Virus record (IMG/VR): IMGVR_UViG_3300028790_000006
Coordinates: 1-57,336 of that record
DNA length: 57,336 bases
Reading direction: 5' to 3' (one strand)
Source: a virus
Taxonomy: Duplodnaviria > Caudoviricetes
Made by a program: the position numbers and the translations under genes. The notes below the pieces were generated by a model. It ran no database searches. It saw only the letters and a list, made by a program, of their open reading frames with translations, and had not been told where the DNA came from. Below are positions 3,743 to 56,970 of this stretch, in pieces. The first letter of the stretch is position 1. Each line of letters opens with the position of its first letter.

Positions 3743-3984
3743 CCTGGATCGGGGCGTCGAAGGTGGTCGGTCGCGACGTCCTGACGACCGAGACCTACCC
3801 GTGCCTGTGTTGGGCCCGCCCGCGGGACTGCGGGAAGGACGAGCCCTGGGGGTGCCCGTGCTGGGGGCGCTACGACCTGTCCGCGGTGCCGGAGGGCTGC
3901 TGCGCCCGGCGGAACCTGGCGACGCTGGAAGGCCTCCGTCGCCAGGCCGCGAGACTACTTGACGTGTCACTTGGTCGTGGGTAG
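3739..3984 (+). CDS. Cys-rich hypothetical protein
   Basis: GTGA overlap with the upstream stop; CLC, CPC and CC clusters. Confidence 0.6.
   Translation: MTWIGASKVVGRDVLTTETYPCLCWARPRDCGKDEPWGCPCWGRYDLSAVPEGCCARRNLATLEGLRRQAARLLDVSLGRG
3957..3976 (+). promoter_or_regulatory. Operator/promoter motif copy 2
   Basis: ACTTGACGTGTCACTTGGTC; TTGACG-17-TAGCGT-7-ATG(3995). Confidence 0.85.
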
Positions 3985-8127: not shown

Positions 8128-8147
8128 ACTTGACGTTTCACTAGGTC
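8128..8147 (+). promoter_or_regulatory. Operator/promoter motif copy 3
   Basis: ACTTGACGTTTCACTAGGTC; TTGACG-18-TAGGTT-6-ATG(8166). Confidence 0.85.
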
Positions 8148-9504: not shown

Positions 9505-10148
9505 TGGACGCGCAGGCGTGGCTGGCCGAGTTCGCGGCCCGGGCCGCGGCGGCTGAGGCGCGCTGGCGCGCTGAACGCGACGAGCTCTGGGCGCGGGTCG
9601 GCGGCGGGGCTGCGGTCGCGGTGGTGCGGGGCGGCGGGACGGTGGTGCTCGAGCCGGCTCGTGAGGTGACCGGGGACGTGCCCGCGGCGGCGTGCGGGCG
9701 ACTGCTGTCGGCCGCCCTGGCCGCGGGCTGGGATACGCGGGTCACGCGGGCGCTGGCCGCGGTGCCGAAGGTCGGGCTGCTGGAGTCGTACGCGGTCCGG
9801 GCCCGCCGCCACGATGAGCGGCTCTGGGCGTGCTGGTGGAACGGGTCATTCGAGGCCGCCCAGTATTTCCGGGCCGGCGGCCGCGTCGAGACGCTCGGCG
9901 CGCAGCGCATGGCCGAGACGGTGGCGGGGCCGCAGCCGGCGGACGGCATGAGCGTGGCGCAGATCAAGACCCTGGCCGCCGAGCGCGGCATCAAGATCCC
10001 CAGCAAGTACAACAAAGCGCAGGTCATCGACCATGTGAAGGCGCACGGCCTGGTGGCCGCACCGCCCCCGCCGGCCGTGCGTGGTGTCCTGGACGCGATC
10101 GAGGGCCTACACTTGGCGCGTCACTTGGTCAGTCCGATGGCGTCATGA
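9504..10148 (+). CDS. Hypothetical protein with a Rho-N/HeH-like nucleic-acid-binding motif
   Basis: TGATG start at 9504; MSVAQIKTLAAERGIKIPSKYNKAQVIDHV. Confidence 0.65.
   Translation: MDAQAWLAEFAARAAAAEARWRAERDELWARVGGGAAVAVVRGGGTVVLEPAREVTGDVPAAACGRLLSAALAAGWDTRVTRALAAVPKVGLLESYAVRARRHDERLWACWWNGSFEAAQYFRAGGRVETLGAQRMAETVAGPQPADGMSVAQIKTLAAERGIKIPSKYNKAQVIDHVKAHGLVAAPPPPAVRGVLDAIEGLHLARHLVSPMAS
10111..10130 (+). promoter_or_regulatory. Degenerate operator motif copy 4, upstream of the terminase genes
   Basis: ACTTGGCGCGTCACTTGGTC (2 changes from ACTTGACGCGTCACTAGGTC). Confidence 0.65.
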
Positions 10149-12899: not shown

Positions 12900-12919
12900 A
12901 CTTGACGCGTCACTAGGTC
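12900..12919 (+). promoter_or_regulatory. Operator/promoter motif copy 5
   Basis: ACTTGACGCGTCACTAGGTC; TTGACG-18-TACGGT-7-ATG(12939). Confidence 0.88.
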
Positions 12920-21607: not shown

Positions 21608-21858
21608 CCGGCCCGCTGCCACACATCGGCCTCGGTACTGGTTTCGCCCGGTCGCTGTATCCCGACGGCAACACCCTCGACGAGGCCGCGGCCAGCGCGA
21701 CCGCCGCGTTCCAGATGCTGGCCAACATGCTCATGGGCCCGCCCGGTCGCCCCAGCGCCCGCGTGCCCGACGTCGAGCCTGAGGTCATCGACGAGCGCGG
21801 CCCGATCCGCGTGCGGGCCGCGGTCGGCCGACCCGTCCTCGAGATCGAGCAGGCATGA
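21604..21858 (+). CDS. Hypothetical protein
   Basis: GTGA and ATGA overlaps with neighbours. Confidence 0.6.
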   Translation: MTGPLPHIGLGTGFARSLYPDGNTLDEAAASATAAFQMLANMLMGPPGRPSARVPDVEPEVIDERGPIRVRAAVGRPVLEIEQA

Positions 21859-31771: not shown

Positions 31772-31791
31772 GACCTAGTGACGTGTCAAGT
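31772..31791 (-). promoter_or_regulatory. Operator/promoter motif copy 6
   Basis: Minus strand ACTTGACACGTCACTAGGTC; TTGACA-19-TACCAT-7-ATG(31751); divergent TATCGT-6-ATG(31809). Confidence 0.85.
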
Positions 31792-39914: not shown

Positions 39915-39932
39915 CCTAGTGACACGTCAAGT
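39913..39932. promoter_or_regulatory. Operator/promoter motif copy 7, at the start of the glycan cluster
   Basis: GACCTAGTGACACGTCAAGT; plus strand GTGACA-17-TACGGT-6-ATG(39954). Confidence 0.85.
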
Positions 39933-48833: not shown

Positions 48834-49923
48834 ATGAATGCTCCAACGATGTACCGCTGGAAGTTCGCCGCGGCTCTGGTCGCGTTCGTTGTCCTGCTGG
48901 CGCTGGCCGGCGTGGCCGTGCTCTCGACCGGCGCCAACGCGTCCGCCGCGCAGCAGCTCGCAGCCCGCGGGCTGAACTGCACGCAGACCGACAAGGCCAA
49001 CGGCGGCTTCGTCCTCGACTGCGACCCCCCGGGAGGCACCCCATCATCACCGGCAAGCTCCTCCGCATCACCCAGCTCGACGCCGACGGCCAGCCCCTCG
49101 GCGAGTCCGTCTTCATCGACTGCCAGCCCGAGCTCGAGCGCTTCGACTTCGCCATCCTCGACGCCCGTACCGACGGCCTCGCCAACTGGGCCGCAGACGA
49201 ACTGTCAGGCGGCGCCGGGGCGCTGCGGGTACCCGGACGCGATGTCGACCGGGGCGAGCTCGGCGGCCGCGGGGACAGTACTGAGCGGTAACCGGACCTT
49301 CACGGTGGCCGGCCAGGTCGTCGCCAACACCACGATCAACGGCTGCGTTCCGAAATGTCGTGTTCAACGCGGGCGGCTGTTTCTGGGGCGTGCGCAACTT
49401 CGCGACCGGGCTGGCCGTAATCGACTCGACGCTGACCTGCGCGGGCACCAACGGCACCGGCTTCGGGTCGACCGACCTGTCCCTGCTGCGGGTGGAGATC
49501 ACGCGCTGCGAGAACGGTCTGAACGTGGCCGGCCGGGTGTCGGTGGTCGACTCCTGGATCCACGACATGAACGGCGGCCAGGGCGGCGCTCACACCGACG
49601 GCGCCCAGTTCAACGAGGGCGCCAGCGACATCGTGTTTCAGCACAACACGATCAACGTCGGTCCGGCCAACGGCGCGACCTCGGCCATCATCATGTGGGA
49701 TGAGGGCGGCTCGCAGAACGCGCGGGTGACGATCTCGGGCAACCTGCTCGCCGGCGGGACCTATGTGTTGTACTGCGGGCGCGAGGGGACGATCGACCGG
49801 GTCCGGGTGACCGGGAACCGGTTCGGCACCTTCGAGTACGGCTACGCCAACGCCTGCAACAACGGGGAGACCTGGTCGGGCAACGTGAGCGACCGGACCG
49901 GGTTGGCCCTGGCCGCCGCGTAG
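48834..49923 (+). pseudogene. Secreted right-handed beta-helix (pectin lyase-like) protein, frame break at ~49349
   Basis: Signal peptide, S/P/T linker, CGYPD; continuation frame has HTDGAQ, HNTI, SAI, ISGNLLAGGTYVLYC. Confidence 0.7.
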
Positions 49924-49962
49924 GCTCGAGGTCTCTTGCCAAAGAGACCTCGGTGAGGCAAC

Positions 49963-50005
49963 AAAAAAGCCCCGCAGGACGCCGGGTGACCGGGCCTGCG
50001 GGGCT
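49963..50005 (-). terminator. Intrinsic terminator of the leftward operon
   Basis: AGCCCCGCAGG/CCTGCGGGGCT stem followed by a T-run on the minus strand; a second hairpin at 49927-49952. Confidence 0.8.
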
Positions 50006-50023
50006 CCTTCGTGGTTGGCTGAA

Positions 50024-50620
50024 CTACGCGGCTTCGACGTGCGCGGGGACCTCGACCGGCTTCCCGTTCAGCGCCGCCACCTTCGACTCCCGGGCCAGCA
50101 CCGCGGCGGCCTCCCTGAACCGCTGCCCGTCCATCTCGGCCTTGATGACCGCCGGAGTCACCGGCACCTGCTGGACCGGCGCAGGATCGGCCTGGGCCAT
50201 CACCAGCGGGCGCAGCTGCCGGACCTTGCGGGAGACCTCGACCAGCGACAGGGCGCAAACCGCCATCGCTCCATCAATGATGATGGGATACAGCCGTGCG
50301 TGGTCGGCCTCGAACCCAAGGTCGAGGATGAACGCGCGCTGCTGACCGTACGAGACCCAACCCGCGAGGCCGACCACGACGACCGTGGCAGCGACTCGAC
50401 CGATCGAGACCGACCAGTGGGTGCTGGGGATCCGGCTGACCAGCTCAAGGCAGATCAGCACGAACAGAGGGGGGGTGCCGCCAACGATCTGGGCACCGAG
50501 ATTCGCGGGGGCGTGCATCACGTTCAGGGTCATGGTGATACCCAGGCCAATCAGGGTGGCGACCGTGACGACGATCCACATGCGCGTGAAGTAGCGCAGC
50601 TCGAGCTTTTCCTTGGTCAT
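50024..50620 (-). CDS. DUF2637-like multi-pass membrane protein
   Basis: LNVMHA, PPLFVLICLEL, VSY, YPIIIDG; four hydrophobic stretches. Confidence 0.75.
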   Translation of the reverse strand: MTKEKLELRYFTRMWIVVTVATLIGLGITMTLNVMHAPANLGAQIVGGTPPLFVLICLELVSRIPSTHWSVSIGRVAATVVVVGLAGWVSYGQQRAFILDLGFEADHARLYPIIIDGAMAVCALSLVEVSRKVRQLRPLVMAQADPAPVQQVPVTPAVIKAEMDGQRFREAAAVLARESKVAALNGKPVEVPAHVEAA

Positions 50621-50708
50621 GGTGTCTCCCAACACTCGTGACCGACAACTGCGACCAGCGGCCGCATGGCGCCGGCCGGGCCCACGATGAGGTGCCCGGC
50701 CGGCCTGA

Positions 50709-50996
50709 TCAGATCATCCGTACTGCGTAGGTGCTCTCGCCGAAGCACGACTGGAGCTTGCACTCCCGGTCGCACCCCAGCCAGACGTCCCAGCCCTGGG
50801 CGGGGCTTTCCGAGATCCAGAGCAGCTTTCCCCACGCGTCGGGCTCGACCGCACTGCCGTGGCAGTGGGCAATCTCGATTTCGTTGAGGTACAGCCACAG
50901 CTGGTCGGTCGGGATCTGGCCCTGCCAGGTGCCGTTCTGCGGCACGCGGCGCGGCGAGCTGAACAGCAGCGGATAGGTCTTTTCGGTCTCACTCAT
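50709..50996 (-). CDS. Hypothetical protein
   Basis: MSETEKTYPLL...; GGGAG RBS. Confidence 0.65.
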   Translation of the reverse strand: MSETEKTYPLLFSSPRRVPQNGTWQGQIPTDQLWLYLNEIEIAHCHGSAVEPDAWGKLLWISESPAQGWDVWLGCDRECKLQSCFGESTYAVRMI

Positions 50997-51282
50997 TCGC
51001 GTCTCCCAACGCTCATGGCGGATAGTTCCGCGTGTCACGTCGGGGCTCGCTCCCGATTGCCGCTAGTCCGTAACCCGGGCCGTGGGCCCTGCACCATCCC
51101 CTACTCACTTGGCGGGATCGGTTTCCCTTAGGCAGTTGTCGTACGCCCCTGGCAACGCCCGTCGTTACGCCTCGGGTGGCGGGCAGTTTGCCCGGGGCCG
51201 GAGCCCCTTGGTCTGCCAACAACGTGGAGCGCCAGGGCTTGAACCTCGGTGCCGGGGCCGGGCCCCCTCTCGCTCCCTCCGA
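50997..51282 (-). ncRNA. Putative structured non-coding leader/RNA B
   Basis: About 285 nt without a credible ORF; many hairpins, including a tRNA-like acceptor/T-arm module at 51225-51276. Confidence 0.45.
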
Positions 51283-51420
51283 TCAGAGCTGCGTCATGAC
51301 ACCGTGCGCGTGCGCGTGGTGCTTTTCGGCTGGCGCCTTGTCGTGCTTCCAGCTCGCACCACCGTTGTTGGTGGTGATCCGCTGGTCGCACGTGGCGCAC
51401 TTGCTCTCGAATCGGTGCAT
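51283..51420 (-). CDS. Small Cys/His metal-binding protein (45 aa)
   Basis: MHRFESKCATCDQRI..WKH..HHAHAH; GGGAGG RBS. Confidence 0.7.
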   Translation of the reverse strand: MHRFESKCATCDQRITTNNGGASWKHDKAPAEKHHAHAHGVMTQL

Positions 51421-51703
51421 GGCTACCTCCCAGTAGCTATGGCGGCGTGTTCCGCGTGCCCGGTGGAGCGGGTTTGGGAGAACCACAGGTGCTCCACCGG
51501 GCTGGCCACGTTTCGCTGCTGCGTCGCGCCGGTGTCGCTGGCGTTCGCGCTGCTCGCCCGTGGCCGGGCGCTTCGACTGTTTGCGTCGGATTCAATGTCT
51601 CCCCGGGCTGGTTCTCTGGCTTGCCGACCGCGTGCCCGGGTTGATCTCCCTGGCCTTCGATCGGGGCGGAGCCCCGGTTCGTCTGTAGTTCTCCCTTGCT
51701 CTA
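51421..51703 (-). ncRNA. Putative structured non-coding leader/RNA A
   Basis: About 280 nt after a strong promoter; stems GCCCGGTGGAGC/GCTCCACCGGGC, CGCCCG/CGGGCG, CGGGGC/GCCCCG. Confidence 0.45.
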
Positions 51704-51708
51704 CCTCA

Positions 51709-51737
51709 AGTATAACGCGTGGCGCCACGCGTAGCAA
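51709..51737 (-). promoter_or_regulatory. Strong SigA/HrdB-type promoter with a palindromic spacer
   Basis: TTGCTA-17-TATACT; perfect palindrome ACGCGTGGCGCCACGCGT at 51715-51732. Confidence 0.75.
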
Positions 51738-51843
51738 CCTGTCAAGGGGGTCCGGGGCCGAGTTCTTCTGTCAGGTTCCCGACACTCGTGGTTTCTCGCG
51801 TGGCTGCTGGCGCGGTGACGCGCGTAGCGCTACGGTGGCAGCC

Positions 51844-52122
51844 ATGACAACGACACTGACCGAACACGAAGAGGCGGCCGTCCAGGCCGCGCGCAACGCG
51901 CGGCTGCTGGGCGAAGAGCGGCGGGCCCTGCTCGCGCAGCTGGCCGAGGTCGAGGACGAGCTGGCCGGCCAGATGCAGGCCATGCGGACCGGTGGAGCGA
52001 CCTGGGTTGAGATCATGCTGGCCAGCGGCTATACCTCGCACGAAGGCGTCAAGAAGATCTGTGACCCGGTGCGCCGTGAGGCCCGCAACCGTGCCGAGCG
52101 CGCCCGGCGAGCTCGGGCATGA
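51844..52122 (+). CDS. HTH DNA-binding protein
   Basis: GATWVEIMLASGYTSHEGVKK; TACGGT-7-ATG. Confidence 0.7.
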   Translation: MTTTLTEHEEAAVQAARNARLLGEERRALLAQLAEVEDELAGQMQAMRTGGATWVEIMLASGYTSHEGVKKICDPVRREARNRAERARRARA

Positions 52123-52349
52123 CAAGGCTGAGCGGAATGCAGATGCTCGCCCTCATCGAGATCCGCGAGACCGGACGTTCGAGCGCGGCGACGCGAACGC
52201 TGCGGTCGCTGCAGTGGGGGCACCGGCTCATCGAGCCGGTCTGCGATGGGGACGCCTGGGCGCTGACCGAGGCCGGCCGGGAGGAGTCCGTGCTCCGCGA
52301 CGGCACCGTGCTGGCCGCGGCGTCGGCGCGCTCCGCGCTGGACCGCTGA
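52119..52349 (+). CDS. Small winged-helix-like protein
   Basis: LSGMQMLAL..TLRSL..LIE..WALTEAGRE. Confidence 0.6.
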   Translation: MTRLSGMQMLALIEIRETGRSSAATRTLRSLQWGHRLIEPVCDGDAWALTEAGREESVLRDGTVLAAASARSALDR

Positions 52350-52366
52350 CGGGGTAACGGACTGCG

Positions 52367-52400
52367 GGCGCCGCCCAGCTTGTGACTGGGCGGCGCCTTT
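52367..52400. terminator. Terminator between convergent genes
   Basis: GGCGCCGCCCAG/CTGGGCGGCGCC followed by TTT. Confidence 0.75.
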
Positions 52401-53078: not shown

Positions 53079-53124
53079 CCTCTCGCCGTGATGCCTTCCC
53101 CGTTGAGATCTGTCGCTGTGAGCG

Positions 53125-53214
53125 TGGCCACGGTGGGATTCGAACCCACGCGCACCGAACGCACCGCCTTCACGGTCCCAGGTGTCGGCGCTCTACCAGC
53201 TGAGCTACATGGCC
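53125..53214 (-). tRNA. tRNA-like RNA with an enlarged, non-canonical anticodon arm (isotype undetermined)
   Basis: GGCCATG/CGTGGCC acceptor, GCTC-AGCTGGTA-GAGC D-arm, GTGGG-TTCGAAT-CCCAC T-arm; 17 extra nt in the anticodon region; no encoded CCA. Confidence 0.75.
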
Positions 53215-54215: not shown

Positions 54216-54235
54216 GACCTAGTGACGTGTCAAGT
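54216..54235 (-). promoter_or_regulatory. Operator/promoter motif copy 11
   Basis: Minus strand ACTTGACACGTCACTAGGTC; TTGACA-18-TAGCGT. Confidence 0.88.
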
Positions 54236-55047: not shown

Positions 55048-56930
55048 GACGCACCGCCGGTACGCGGCGCCTGGGTCGGGCAGTAGTCGACGCTGCTACA
55101 GCTGCCGCAGAACGTCGAGGGGCGCGGGGCGAAGACGGCGTTGCGCATCGCCCGGTCAGCAGTCCGGTAGCGATAGTCGATCTCGTCGCGGGCCGCGTCG
55201 GCGTCCAGCGCGATCGGGTCGGTGTAGATGCCTTTCCGGGCCAGCCAGTACCGGCCGACCACCGGCAGAGCGAAGTTGGGCGGCAGGTGCTTGCGCAGGA
55301 TGTCGCCGTACTCGACCAACTGGAAGTGCTCGCTCGGGGCGCTCTTGCCGGTCTTGAAGTCCACCACCTCGAGCGTGGCCGTGGGGTACTGCGGGCCGGT
55401 GGCCATCCACGCCGCGTCGATGAAGCCGGTGGTGGTGATGGCCGTCGAGCCGGCTGCCATGGTGAACGGGAACTCCAGCACCGGGATGCGCGGCGAGTCC
55501 GGGTTGGCCAGGTCCGCGGGGACCTGCAGCAGGACGTGCGCCGCCCGCCACTCGTTGTCGTGGAAGGCCAGGTAGCGCTCGAGCATGGCGTGACCCTCGA
55601 CGCGCCACCAGTCGTAGCCTTCAAGGCCGCGGTTGGCGACGTGCCACGTCGAGGTGAGCGCGTAGGCGGTGCCGGCCAGGGCGTCGGTCGTCTCGTCGAT
55701 CTGGGCGCTCAGGCAGGTCTCCCAGAATTCGCGCCAGTCGCCGAGTTCACCGGAAGGCGACGCGCCGCCCAGCGCCAGCGCGGCCAGCTCGATCTGCTCG
55801 ATGGCGTGGTGGAACGCGCTGCCGCCGACCAGCGACCAGGACGGGCGCCGCGGCCCGATCTCGCCGGTCTTGCTGGCGTCGGACAGCAGGGCGGACAGGC
55901 CGCAGCCCTCCAGCGACTCAACGTAGGAGTGCGACAGGTGCGGTCGGGGGATCGGGTAGGTGGCCGCGATCAGCGGGCCCAGCTCGGGATAGGTCAGACG
56001 TTTGACGTCGCGTCGCTGCGCGCCGGGGCTCGAGAAAGGGTTGGCCAGCAGGTCAGCGGGGGTGATGGGCTGCGGGCTGGTGAACGGGCTGGGCTGCACG
56101 GCCTCACCTTCGATCGTCGTCGGCTCAAGCGGAAAATCGAAGTGGATCGAGTGGATGTCCGGATGCTTCGGGCAACCGCGGGTCTTCGTGCACAGGATGA
56201 GTACCTCAGTCGAGGTGGCGCGGGGCTTCGGGTCGTAGACGTCGGTCTTACCGGTCAGGTAGTCCATGGTCGGGTCCCCGGTCGGTGCGGGCAGCGGCCC
56301 GTTGGTCGCCCGGTCCCAGGCGGGGCTGGCGGCGATCTCGGTCTGGCACAGGGTGCACAGTGACGCGCCCGACTTGAGCGTCGAGACGGCGCTGGCCGGG
56401 TGGCTGCAGCCTTCCTTCATGGCCTCGGTCGCCGCAGCTTCCTGGACCGCGGCGAAGTCGATGCCCGCCGGGTCGGGCGCGCTCAGGCTCAACGCCGCGC
56501 AGTTCGGATGGCCGCAGTCGCACTGTGGCTCATGGTCGAGCGGCTCAAGCTCCGCTTTCGCTGCGGCCAGGCTCTCGTATCCGGCGGCCTGAGCGCCGAT
56601 CTCTGCGTAGTCCGGGGCGAGGACCGGGCGGGAGGTGAGGCCGACCGCGAAGCCGGCCAGCCGGGCCGCCGCCTGGGTGTACTCCTTCGCGATGCCCACG
56701 TGCCCCTTGCGCTTGGCCTGCGTGACGTGGGCGGCCTCTTCGCGCCAGATCGCGACCAGCTCCATCATGGCGGCCTGAACGATGCCCGGAATCTCGCCGG
56801 GCAGGAACTCATGGCCTGGTTCGCCTGTGGCGTCGAATCCAGATTTGATGACGCGGCCGCGGGCCTGGGCGTTGCGGTCCTGAATTTCCTTCACGTCCTG
56901 GCTGGTGGACGTTGCCGTTGATGTGGTCAC
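55044..56930 (-). CDS. PD-(D/E)xK RecB/Cas4-like exonuclease with a long N-terminal extension
   Basis: LSHS..C, GSAFH, GFID, DFKTGK, QL..Y, CGSC..C; GTG at 56930 lies 8 nt after a -10 box. Confidence 0.88.
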   Translation of the reverse strand: MTTSTATSTSQDVKEIQDRNAQARGRVIKSGFDATGEPGHEFLPGEIPGIVQAAMMELVAIWREEAAHVTQAKRKGHVGIAKEYTQAAARLAGFAVGLTSRPVLAPDYAEIGAQAAGYESLAAAKAELEPLDHEPQCDCGHPNCAALSLSAPDPAGIDFAAVQEAAATEAMKEGCSHPASAVSTLKSGASLCTLCQTEIAASPAWDRATNGPLPAPTGDPTMDYLTGKTDVYDPKPRATSTEVLILCTKTRGCPKHPDIHSIHFDFPLEPTTIEGEAVQPSPFTSPQPITPADLLANPFSSPGAQRRDVKRLTYPELGPLIAATYPIPRPHLSHSYVESLEGCGLSALLSDASKTGEIGPRRPSWSLVGGSAFHHAIEQIELAALALGGASPSGELGDWREFWETCLSAQIDETTDALAGTAYALTSTWHVANRGLEGYDWWRVEGHAMLERYLAFHDNEWRAAHVLLQVPADLANPDSPRIPVLEFPFTMAAGSTAITTTGFIDAAWMATGPQYPTATLEVVDFKTGKSAPSEHFQLVEYGDILRKHLPPNFALPVVGRYWLARKGIYTDPIALDADAARDEIDYRYRTADRAMRNAVFAPRPSTFCGSCSSVDYCPTQAPRTGGAS

Positions 56931-56950: not shown

Positions 56951-56970
56951 GACCTAGTGACACGTCAAGT
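56951..56970 (-). promoter_or_regulatory. Operator/promoter motif copy 12
   Basis: Minus strand ACTTGACGTGTCACTAGGTC; TTGACG-18-TAGCGT-8-GTG(56930). Confidence 0.88.

Follow-up and report, generated by a model that had tools for sequence, protein, structure and literature searches.

The sequences described so far that most resemble the element studied here are the start-associated sequences (SAS) of Cluster K mycobacteriophages, a 13-mer with AGGAG that precedes the ATG of numerous non-structural, mutually unrelated genes by 3-7 bp and is accompanied by an upstream inverted repeat in about half of the cases (PMC3203893, PMC11373665, PMC12699233). ATG is the preferred start codon (80 of 93; PMC3203893). 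The extended start-associated sequence (ESAS), an imperfect inverted repeat of 17 bp, is today interpreted as a promoter combined with an operator (PMC11373665), and its pairing at the RNA level was not supported in Pope et al. 2011 (PMC3203893). The function of SAS was without explanation in 2011 and still so in 2024-2025 (PMC3203893, PMC11373665, PMC12699233). Here, we describe a family of short hairpins presenting the Shine-Dalgarno (SD) sequence in their loop directly ahead of start codons, starting from three copies in the virus record IMGVR_UViG_3300028790_000006 of IMG/VR, from an uncultured soil phage (hereafter the window, i.e. the entire record, a single contig of 57,336 bases classed as linear, with a CheckV completeness of 82). 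Start-associated motifs of actinobacteriophages have lacked an explanation since 2011, and this family offers the first clear covariation indicating that selection on such a motif acts on the hairpin rather than on the word, which makes the question testable by compensatory mutants.

The initial annotation had listed three GGGA-loop hairpins on the minus strand, just before three ATGs, and each was found where it had been placed: GCTACT-GGGA-GGTAGC at 51437-51422 (ATG at 51420), GCGTT-GGGA-GACGC at 51012-50999 (ATG at 50996) and GTGTT-GGGA-GACAC at 50635-50622 (ATG at 50620). They end 0-2 nt ahead of the ATGs of three consecutive genes, here designated A, B and C. In predicted folds these hairpins (termed H2) continue outward and involve the start codon, which had been overlooked before. 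In genes A and B, a CAU is paired to the AUG beyond an A/C mismatch or a GA/GA internal loop, and in gene C the start is spanned by a GGUCA:UGACC helix:

51418-51441, minus strand: SD hairpin H2 of gene A, 6-bp stem and GGGA loop (51437-51422), extended by CAU:AUG pairing
50994-51017, minus strand: SD hairpin H2 of gene B, 5-bp stem and GGGA loop (51012-50999), GA/GA internal loop, CAU:AUG pairing
50615-50643, minus strand: SD hairpin H2 of gene C, 5-bp stem and GGGA loop (50635-50622), GGUCA:UGACC pairing across the start codon

Hairpins of this kind are not enriched as such, as 13 with a GGGA loop and a stem of at least 4 bp (6 of them with at least 5 bp) occur genome-wide on both strands, a number close to chance; a start codon follows only three of the 13, and these are the trio of the window. 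Likewise, a covariance model of the hairpin, whose training set included the three window hairpins, matched only these three (28, 24.9 and 24.8 bits), the next match reaching 14 bits with an E value of 0.24. Within the window, the case would amount to three of three consecutive genes, and the decisive evidence comes from relatives.

Relatives were retrieved by several routes, and their loci are referred to below by our own handles (L001 and so on) where needed. Gene B recovered six IMG/VR loci and nine metagenome loci (one on an already-found contig) at 82-92% identity. The commonest hairpin of a second class, with a 7-nt AGGGAGA loop, was searched together with its ATG as a 20-mer and gave 12 stretches on 11 IMG/VR contigs, nine of them new; in one of these contigs the AGGGAGA hairpin heads small genes at least 10 times. 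An exact CACGCGGAAC-NNN-CCGCCAT pattern, found ahead of two of the window hairpins, gave 16 stretches in IMG/VR, of which four were relatives on already-found contigs and 12 were chance matches. An 18-mer of the gene C hairpin and a 21-mer of the leader start (see below) recurred only in already-found contigs, and a search of IMG/VR with gene C returned no relative. In the cultured-phage collection, the region had no relative at the DNA or protein level, and a 40-nt module query had only chance-level matches within coding regions (E 2 or worse).

Altogether, the three copies of the initial annotation became a family of about 50: we counted 50 non-identical instances in about 20 uncultured phage contigs, 20 with the U[GGGA]G loop and 30 with the AGGGAGA loop, a set that holds at least one likely chance member (on the window plus strand, with a TTG start). 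Placement is close to fixed, as 48 of the 50 starts are ATG and the distance from GGGAG to the start is 5-6 nt in 46 instances. The stems, however, vary freely while their pairing is kept. In relatives, GGGA-class stems include TCTGAT/GTCGGA, CGTT/GACG, GCGAT/GTCGC and GAGGTT/GACCTC, and those of the AGGGAGA class GTCGG/CCGAC, TGTGGG/CCCACA and TGGTGG/CCACCA. In the GGGA class (18 sequences, 13 distinct rows), 91.0% of the cells were paired against 64.9 +/- 3.2 after shuffling (reached in 0 of 500 shuffles) and 33-60% in slid registers; five of six stem pairs were changed on both sides, and U, GGGA and G were invariant in 18 of 18. The AGGGAGA class (16 distinct rows) behaved comparably, with 88.5% paired against 73.2 +/- 2.3 shuffled (0 of 500) and 13-45% in slid registers, five of six pairs doubly changed and the loop invariant in 16 of 16. 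As the rows are related, the shuffle counts are not probabilities, and the argument consists of the slid controls and the independent stem types (nine GGGA, eight AGGGAGA). A single genome, L005, illustrates the point with half-sites GTCGG, TGTGGG, TGGTGG and GCGAT, in which complementarity alone was kept. Thus, the covariation in homologues whose lack had been named among the grounds for dismissal is present in both classes, and because the stems change on both sides and hold a fixed place before starts, the hairpin family is real, under selection and not due to chance. Chance, or a neutral relic of duplicated sequence, would find some comfort in the lack of genome-wide over-representation and in the common ancestry of copies within a genome, yet we give it almost no weight in view of the compensatory changes in five of six pairs of both classes, the fixed place before ATG and the roughly 20 contigs.

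Compared to SAS, the family shares placement and differs in structure. In both cases, an SD-core repeat lies a few bases (3-9 by the SAS criterion) before the starts of unrelated non-structural genes, in one orientation and with an ATG preference, an outer symmetry surrounds a 7-nt purine-rich centre (GGG-AUAGGAG-CCC in SAS, GUCGG-AGGGAGA-CCGAC here), and a second element, found in about half of SAS cases, sits just upstream. However, SAS is a fixed 13-mer with three symmetric bases per side, whereas here stems of 4-6 bp co-vary. Using the SAS definition of GGGATAGGAGCCC with at most 2 mismatches (Pope 2011, PMC3203893; reused in PMC12699233), the window contains no match, and its eight matches with 3 mismatches compare to 23.4 expected; none of the 43 loci examined contains an exact match. 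Conversely, phage Anaya has 16 SAS matches with at most 2 mismatches, which are a fixed word whose GGG/CCC ends are not extended by pairing in 14 of 16 and show no stem variation. A/C-rich words resembling CAACAAC stand ahead of several SAS copies of the same phage (record 25000-60835), recalling the AAC-rich loops of the helper hairpins described next. ESAS differ as well, being a 17-bp repeat with a conserved consensus and SigA-like -35/-10 hexamers; membership was rejected for the upstream helper (H1), a short hairpin with unrelated stems of 4-8 bp and no promoter hexamers. The hairpin family is therefore SAS-like in placement, distinct by its structure with free stems, and not a member of SAS.

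Besides H2, each module possesses this helper hairpin H1, of which the initial annotation had recognized two, as a shared CACGCGGAAC-NNN-CCGCCAT element. That element indeed occurs exactly twice (51458-51439 and 51034-51015), a third match at 21794 with 3 mismatches being at chance level (0.71 expected); gene C has an upstream hairpin too, and the helper is present in every module:

51439-51458, minus strand: helper hairpin H1 of gene A, GCGG-AACACG-CCGC inside CAC...CAT
51015-51034, minus strand: helper hairpin H1 of gene B, GCGG-AACTAT-CCGC, with the stem GCAGC/GCTGC in L006 and L005
50650-50666, minus strand: helper hairpin H1 of gene C, UGCGGCC-GCU-GGUCGCA, with a longer linker
50671-50704, minus strand: long G+C-rich hairpin H0 directly after the gene B stop, loop CUCAUCG, no U tract
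51225-51276, minus strand: tRNA-like element after gene A, built of an acceptor-like stem, a central hairpin and a T-arm (loop UUCAAGC)

The H1 stems (4-8 bp) are unrelated in sequence, e.g. GCGG/CCGC, GCAGC/GCUGC, CCGUCC/GGACGG, CCCGC/GCGGG, GCCGAG/CUCGGC, CCACCC/GGGUGG and many others, and the loop is frequently A/C-rich; at the gene C site, relatives have GCGG-CCAACCA-CCGC or GCACC-GUCU-GGUGC. A hairpin of at least 5 bp ending 0-5 nt before H2 was found in 36 of 49 modules compared to 27.1% of 5000 random windows, and one of at least 6 bp in 28 of 49 compared to 12.8%. H1 was also considered as a promoter, which was rejected since no promoter-like hexamers occur at any H1. Units of the AGGGAGA class are laid out as a stop codon followed by an 11-13-bp G+C-rich hairpin, a short word (e.g. 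CACUCAG), H1 and H2, and the spacer between genes B and C of the window has the same layout, with H0 as its long hairpin. No terminator-like site was called at H0 (50671-50704), nor any intrinsic terminator on the minus strand between 49900 and 52400, and the SD hairpins are followed by an ATG, which led us to reject them as terminators. The tRNA-like element has a 6-bp acceptor-like stem (GGAGCG/CGCUCC, replaced by GCGGCG/CGCCGC in L001) and 15 consensus pairs, five with compensatory changes, and recurs at L001:2287-2343, L003:4579-4635 and about 4680, L006:3709-3765, L024:324-380 and L025:1061-1117. We rejected it as a tRNA, as neither ARAGORN nor Rfam RF00005 called 51276-51225 and its parts are limited to the acceptor-like stem, the T-arm and a single central hairpin; enzymes that mature tRNAs may recognize it as a processing signal. 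Other T-arm-bearing elements were seen directly before the gene B cassette in L004, L005, L024, L027 and L040.

The genes behind these modules have little in common:

51283-51420, minus strand: gene A, 45 aa, Cys/His-rich, with homologues in L001, L002 and L023
50709-50996, minus strand: gene B, 95 aa, the most conserved gene of the operon
50024-50620, minus strand: gene C, 198 aa, a DUF2637 membrane protein

Gene C matches PF10935 (E 4.8e-06, 27 bits against a cut-off of 22.8), as does its counterpart in L005, whereas genes A and B belong to no Pfam or PHROGs family; a structure model of gene B (pLDDT 72.8) is a small all-beta domain with no PDB match at E 0.001 or better. When nine other module-headed genes and one neighbour were searched against Pfam, DUF2637 alone passed its cut-off. 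The module-headed proteins, most of them orphans of 45-100 aa, form 30 BLAST clusters, such that the hairpins are spread over unrelated genes. For three clusters, namely those of gene B, gene C and a 72-75-aa family, the loop class differs from one phage to another, and hence the two classes appear to be interchangeable. Furthermore, the leader and hairpin found before gene A in the window immediately precede gene B in L003; the device thus goes with the position, or the cassette joint, rather than with a gene. In L004 and L028, gene B is preceded by other hairpins or by none.

In the window, all three copies are confined to a single operon of small genes behind one promoter, which is followed by a long leader that had previously gone unnoticed:

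51709-51737, minus strand: sigma-70-like operon promoter, TTGCTA, 17 nt, TATACT
51421-51700, minus strand: non-coding leader of about 280 nt, starting with AGCAAGGGAGAAC, nearly invariant in 6 aligned sequences
51684-51695, minus strand: leader 5' segment GGGAGAACUACA, 12-bp complement of 51487-51476
51460-51500, minus strand: leader hairpin with a 10-bp outer stem and a 21-nt loop with CUCCCA (51480-51475), part of the minimum-energy fold

The promoter (51737-51709) is the sole promoter-like site within 49900-52400, and a TAnnnT hexamer stands at equal distance before the conserved leader start in four aligned genomes, while the DNA just upstream of the leader does not align among relatives. 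A leader peptide, encoded by a TTG open reading frame inside the leader, was rejected, as in the alignment the reading frame differs between the window and L003. The leader holds three further GGGAG words, and the CUCCCA loop of its hairpin, likewise absent from the initial annotation, is a mirror image of the UGGGAG loop. The outer stem of this hairpin is altered on both sides in relatives (GGTGGAGC/GCTCCACC against GGTAGAGC/GCTCTACC; L001 with a G-U pair). RNAalifold pairs GGGAGAACUACA with the columns of 51487-51476 in 6 of 6 sequences, in which both sides are invariant and covariation has no purchase. The leader as a whole could be a sensor or antitermination RNA.

How might these hairpins act? 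Judged from sequence and predicted folds, we tentatively favour, at somewhat less than even chance, that they are copies of a portable mRNA start cassette which displays the SD. Such a cassette would consist of H1 (free stem sequence, often with an A/C-rich loop), a short linker and H2, the latter carrying the SD core GGGAG at its tip and ending 0-2 nt before the ATG, with outer pairs often reaching the start codon, and it would act in the mRNA as a self-contained ribosome-entry unit. As long, strongly folded spacers separate the small genes, initiation would not rely on translational coupling. By locking the flanks of the SD together, the local fold would be fixed and the SD displayed and shielded from the C-rich stretches of a transcript of 70% G+C. 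Expression would thereby become independent of the upstream gene, which would suit genes that are swapped between phages, and each unit would be delimited and protected by H1 and by the structure that follows the previous stop codon, a long hairpin or a tRNA-like element. We infer action at the RNA level, a help rather than a hindrance to initiation, and insulating or protective roles. RNA is supported by the constant orientation, the distance to the ATG, the SD core as loop and G-U pairs on the coding strand, which close the loop in all 18 GGGA hairpins and also occur at one internal position in L001 and in several H1 stems. The U-G closing pair noted by the initial annotation is invariant in the GGGA class and equally readable as part of a UGGGAG hexaloop. 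Opening the ribosome site (-14 to +4) is predicted to cost 10.4, 9.4 and 13.1 kcal/mol for genes A, B and C, respectively, compared to 9.7 +/- 3.0 kcal/mol for 33 other, roughly called gene starts of the window. We therefore rejected the hairpins as a strong block of the ribosome site, as these energies are ordinary for the genome; the special feature is a defined, conserved fold rather than closure, which fits display. The arrangement is comparable to synthetic toehold switches and hairpin-insulated sites, with the ribosome site in the loop, the start codon in or at the stem base and context independence, but the elements here are natural and far shorter (4-9 bp), and their stems differ such that one trigger RNA could not open all. 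The family also points to a compact, context-independent ribosome-entry part for high-G+C hosts and shows an unusual layout for a phage operon, every small gene being enclosed by RNA structures of its own, with the mirror-image loop, the tRNA-like elements and the conserved 280-nt leader as candidate partners.

Several observations do not sit easily with display by a start cassette. A 4-nt loop cannot pair with the ribosome unless the stem melts. Insulation leaves the invariant loops unexplained, and also the dominance of one 17-mer, GTCGG-AGGGAGA-CCGAC, which makes up 20 of the 30 AGGGAGA-class copies across contigs; this pattern suggests a specific reader. The sense strand is more stable than the antisense strand in just 19 of 49 modules, i.e. 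there is no energy asymmetry, and the AGGGAGA stems are pure Watson-Crick, perfect palindromes, so that the RNA-level claim leans mainly on placement and orientation. H2 is contained in the minimum-energy fold of 19 of 27 modules, whereas in the other eight the best fold is a competitor in which a C-rich stretch ahead of H1 captures the 5' strand of H2; before gene B this competing pairing is CCCGACGU with GCGUUGGG, kept in L006 via two G-U pairs. Finally, in three metatranscriptome runs, short contigs at a depth of 2-3 cover parts of genes B and C and none the spacers or the leader, which is too thin to speak on transcription, ends or processing. One of these contigs (run X14) joins 50305 to 50391 within gene C, skipping 85 nt, and this joint could reflect a variant, a relative or an error of assembly.

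A specific reader could be RNA or protein. Possible, though in our estimation doubtful, is riboregulation by mirror image, in which one anti-SD element on the operon RNA pairs with all SD loops and gates their translation jointly, the element being CUCCCA of the leader hairpin in the window and UCUCCCC before the DUF2637 gene in AGGGAGA-class phages. Such pairing would account for invariant loops beside drifting stems. Indeed, UCUCCCAA (51481-51474) could pair without mismatch with UUGGGAGA, present in the gene B and C hairpins, and over 7 positions with the gene A hairpin, and it sits in the loop of the leader hairpin, which is conserved in 6 sequences and has a stem that changes on both sides. 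Comparably, UCUCCCC lies in the unpaired side of a conserved two-level hairpin in five AGGGAGA-class contigs, 63-66 nt before the SD of the DUF2637-like gene, with 4 of 11 consensus pairs doubly changed:

L005:5585-5644: two-level hairpin with UCUCCCC
L032:14383-14442, minus strand: two-level hairpin with UCUCCCC
L034:2263-2322: two-level hairpin with UCUCCCC
L038:5157-5216, minus strand: two-level hairpin with UCUCCCC
L042:6893-6952, minus strand: two-level hairpin with UCUCCCC

The UCCC-loop small RNAs of staphylococci and the 6C RNA of actinobacteria possess C-rich loops that pair with SD sequences, and a C-rich loop complementary to G-rich ribosome sites is what we see here, except that it lies inside the operon's own leader and has no Rfam match. 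However, any C-rich loop resembles an anti-SD, a single such element would face three to five or more SD loops, anti-SD and SD loops do not co-vary (the AGGGAGA class matches over 6 nt only), and L004 and L028 lack the usual hairpin before gene B. In addition, the leader segment has a longer partner in the leader 5' end GGGAGAACUACA (12 bp, 6 of 6 sequences), which could make a three-part switch or could merely occupy the anti-SD segment. The suggestion of an RNA switch in the initial annotation thus gains some support from the competing fold in eight of 27 modules and from the leader loop complementary to the SD loop. A further proposal, which we consider improbable, combines these elements into a protein-free RNA punctuation of the operon, with restart and joint gating: host tRNA-processing enzymes would cut the tRNA-like elements and long hairpins after each stop codon, H1 would cap the new 5' end, H2 would offer a standard SD loop, and one leader anti-SD loop would pair with all the identical SD loops, switching the gene set jointly. 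If true, the SAS of mycobacteriophages may represent a degenerate form of this principle.

The alternative that a phage or host RNA-binding protein reads H1-H2 as a translational operator, with the loop as identity element, and represses or activates the set, was one of those put forward by the initial annotation, and we regard it as rather unlikely. It has precedents in T4 RegA, MS2 coat protein and Mu Com, which read translational operators, and in CsrA/RsmA, whose targets carry GGA in a hairpin loop overlapping the SD. The hairpins here share with the MS2 coat/replicase, T4 RegA and Mu Com/mom sites a position at or beside a phage ribosome site and start codon, and with Mu also a helper site beside a start-occluding hairpin. 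Yet MS2 and Mu have known protein readers with one or few targets, RegA sites are loosely defined and unstructured, and here the SD itself is the loop. Drifting stems next to constant loops and a constant adjacent base, a fixed arrangement of the two hairpins, the restriction of the device to one class of genes, and the small Cys/His-rich proteins without known family encoded by the operon (gene A, gene B and a 69-aa protein) would all suit a protein reader. Of the initial interpretation, a conserved, co-varying structure at the ribosome-binding sites was borne out. On the other hand, there is no candidate reader common to all contigs: gene B, the most conserved product, was not found behind any module of the nine new contigs that the 20-mer recovered, none of which was returned by the gene B scan of IMG/VR, and neither the gene B model (no PDB match) nor families of genes A and B (none in Pfam or PHROGs) indicate a reader. 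As for the CsrA/Rsm-like protein suggested initially, GGA does lie in the loop of a short hairpin overlapping the SD, with further GGGAG motifs in the leader, but the loop reads GGGA or AGGGAGA instead of simply providing the ANGGA context, and a six-frame search of the record with PF02599 gave nothing at E 1 or better, so that no csrA is encoded there. CsrA is not known in high-G+C Gram-positives or actinobacteria. Action at the DNA level, either as a repressor operator, as in stoperators or ESAS as now read, or as a recombination hot spot at cassette joints, appears very unlikely to us. The AGGGAGA stems are perfect palindromes whose antisense folds are as stable as the sense ones, the elements stand at joints where genes differ between phages, and in Adephagia the ESAS has been interpreted as a promoter with an inverted repeat (PMC11373665). 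We rate this low because one DNA-binding protein would not accept the four half-sites of L005, and the constant sense orientation, the SD in the loop at ribosomal distance from the ATG, the coding-strand G-U pairs and the lack of promoter-like hexamers at H1 argue against it as well.

The initial annotation had called the hairpins possibly undescribed, and this holds so far. The Rfam search it proposed gave no family for the hairpins: at the gathering threshold the sole match of the window is a tRNA (53125-53214) and ten related loci have none, and at E 10 or better the interval 50500-51900 has three chance-level matches only. In the literature, no account of an SD-loop hairpin family was found, the supplementary tables of the SAS papers, which possibly list variants, lying outside the search. 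With regard to the virus itself, PHROGs profiles on the plus strand (primase, helicase, large terminase, portal, major head protein and tape measure) and a G+C content of 65-73% across the whole contig (about 70% overall) identify the window, by sequence, as a tailed phage of a high-G+C host. A gene B profile had no match in 185,579 species genomes, covering prophages and hosts, and the label 'actinobacterial' would derive only from G+C content and DUF2637.

Two further features were noted outside the operon:

432-446, 3959-3973, 8130-8144, 10113-10127, 12902-12916, 31775-31789, 39916-39930, 54219-54233, 55597-55611 and 56954-56968, both strands: copies of the word TTGACRYRYCACTAG
53124-53214, minus strand: tRNA gene, 91 nt, Rfam 53.5 bits

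The 15-bp word occurs in 10 window copies with at most 2 mismatches (6 exact), compared to 0.44 expected. These copies mostly appear intergenic, with a similar word near the divergent region of L005, and they are probably a set of phage promoters or operators separate from the hairpin cassettes. The tRNA has normal acceptor, D and T arms and an irregular, over-long anticodon region, and ARAGORN reports it as an undetermined tRNA with the four-base anticodon GGGA.

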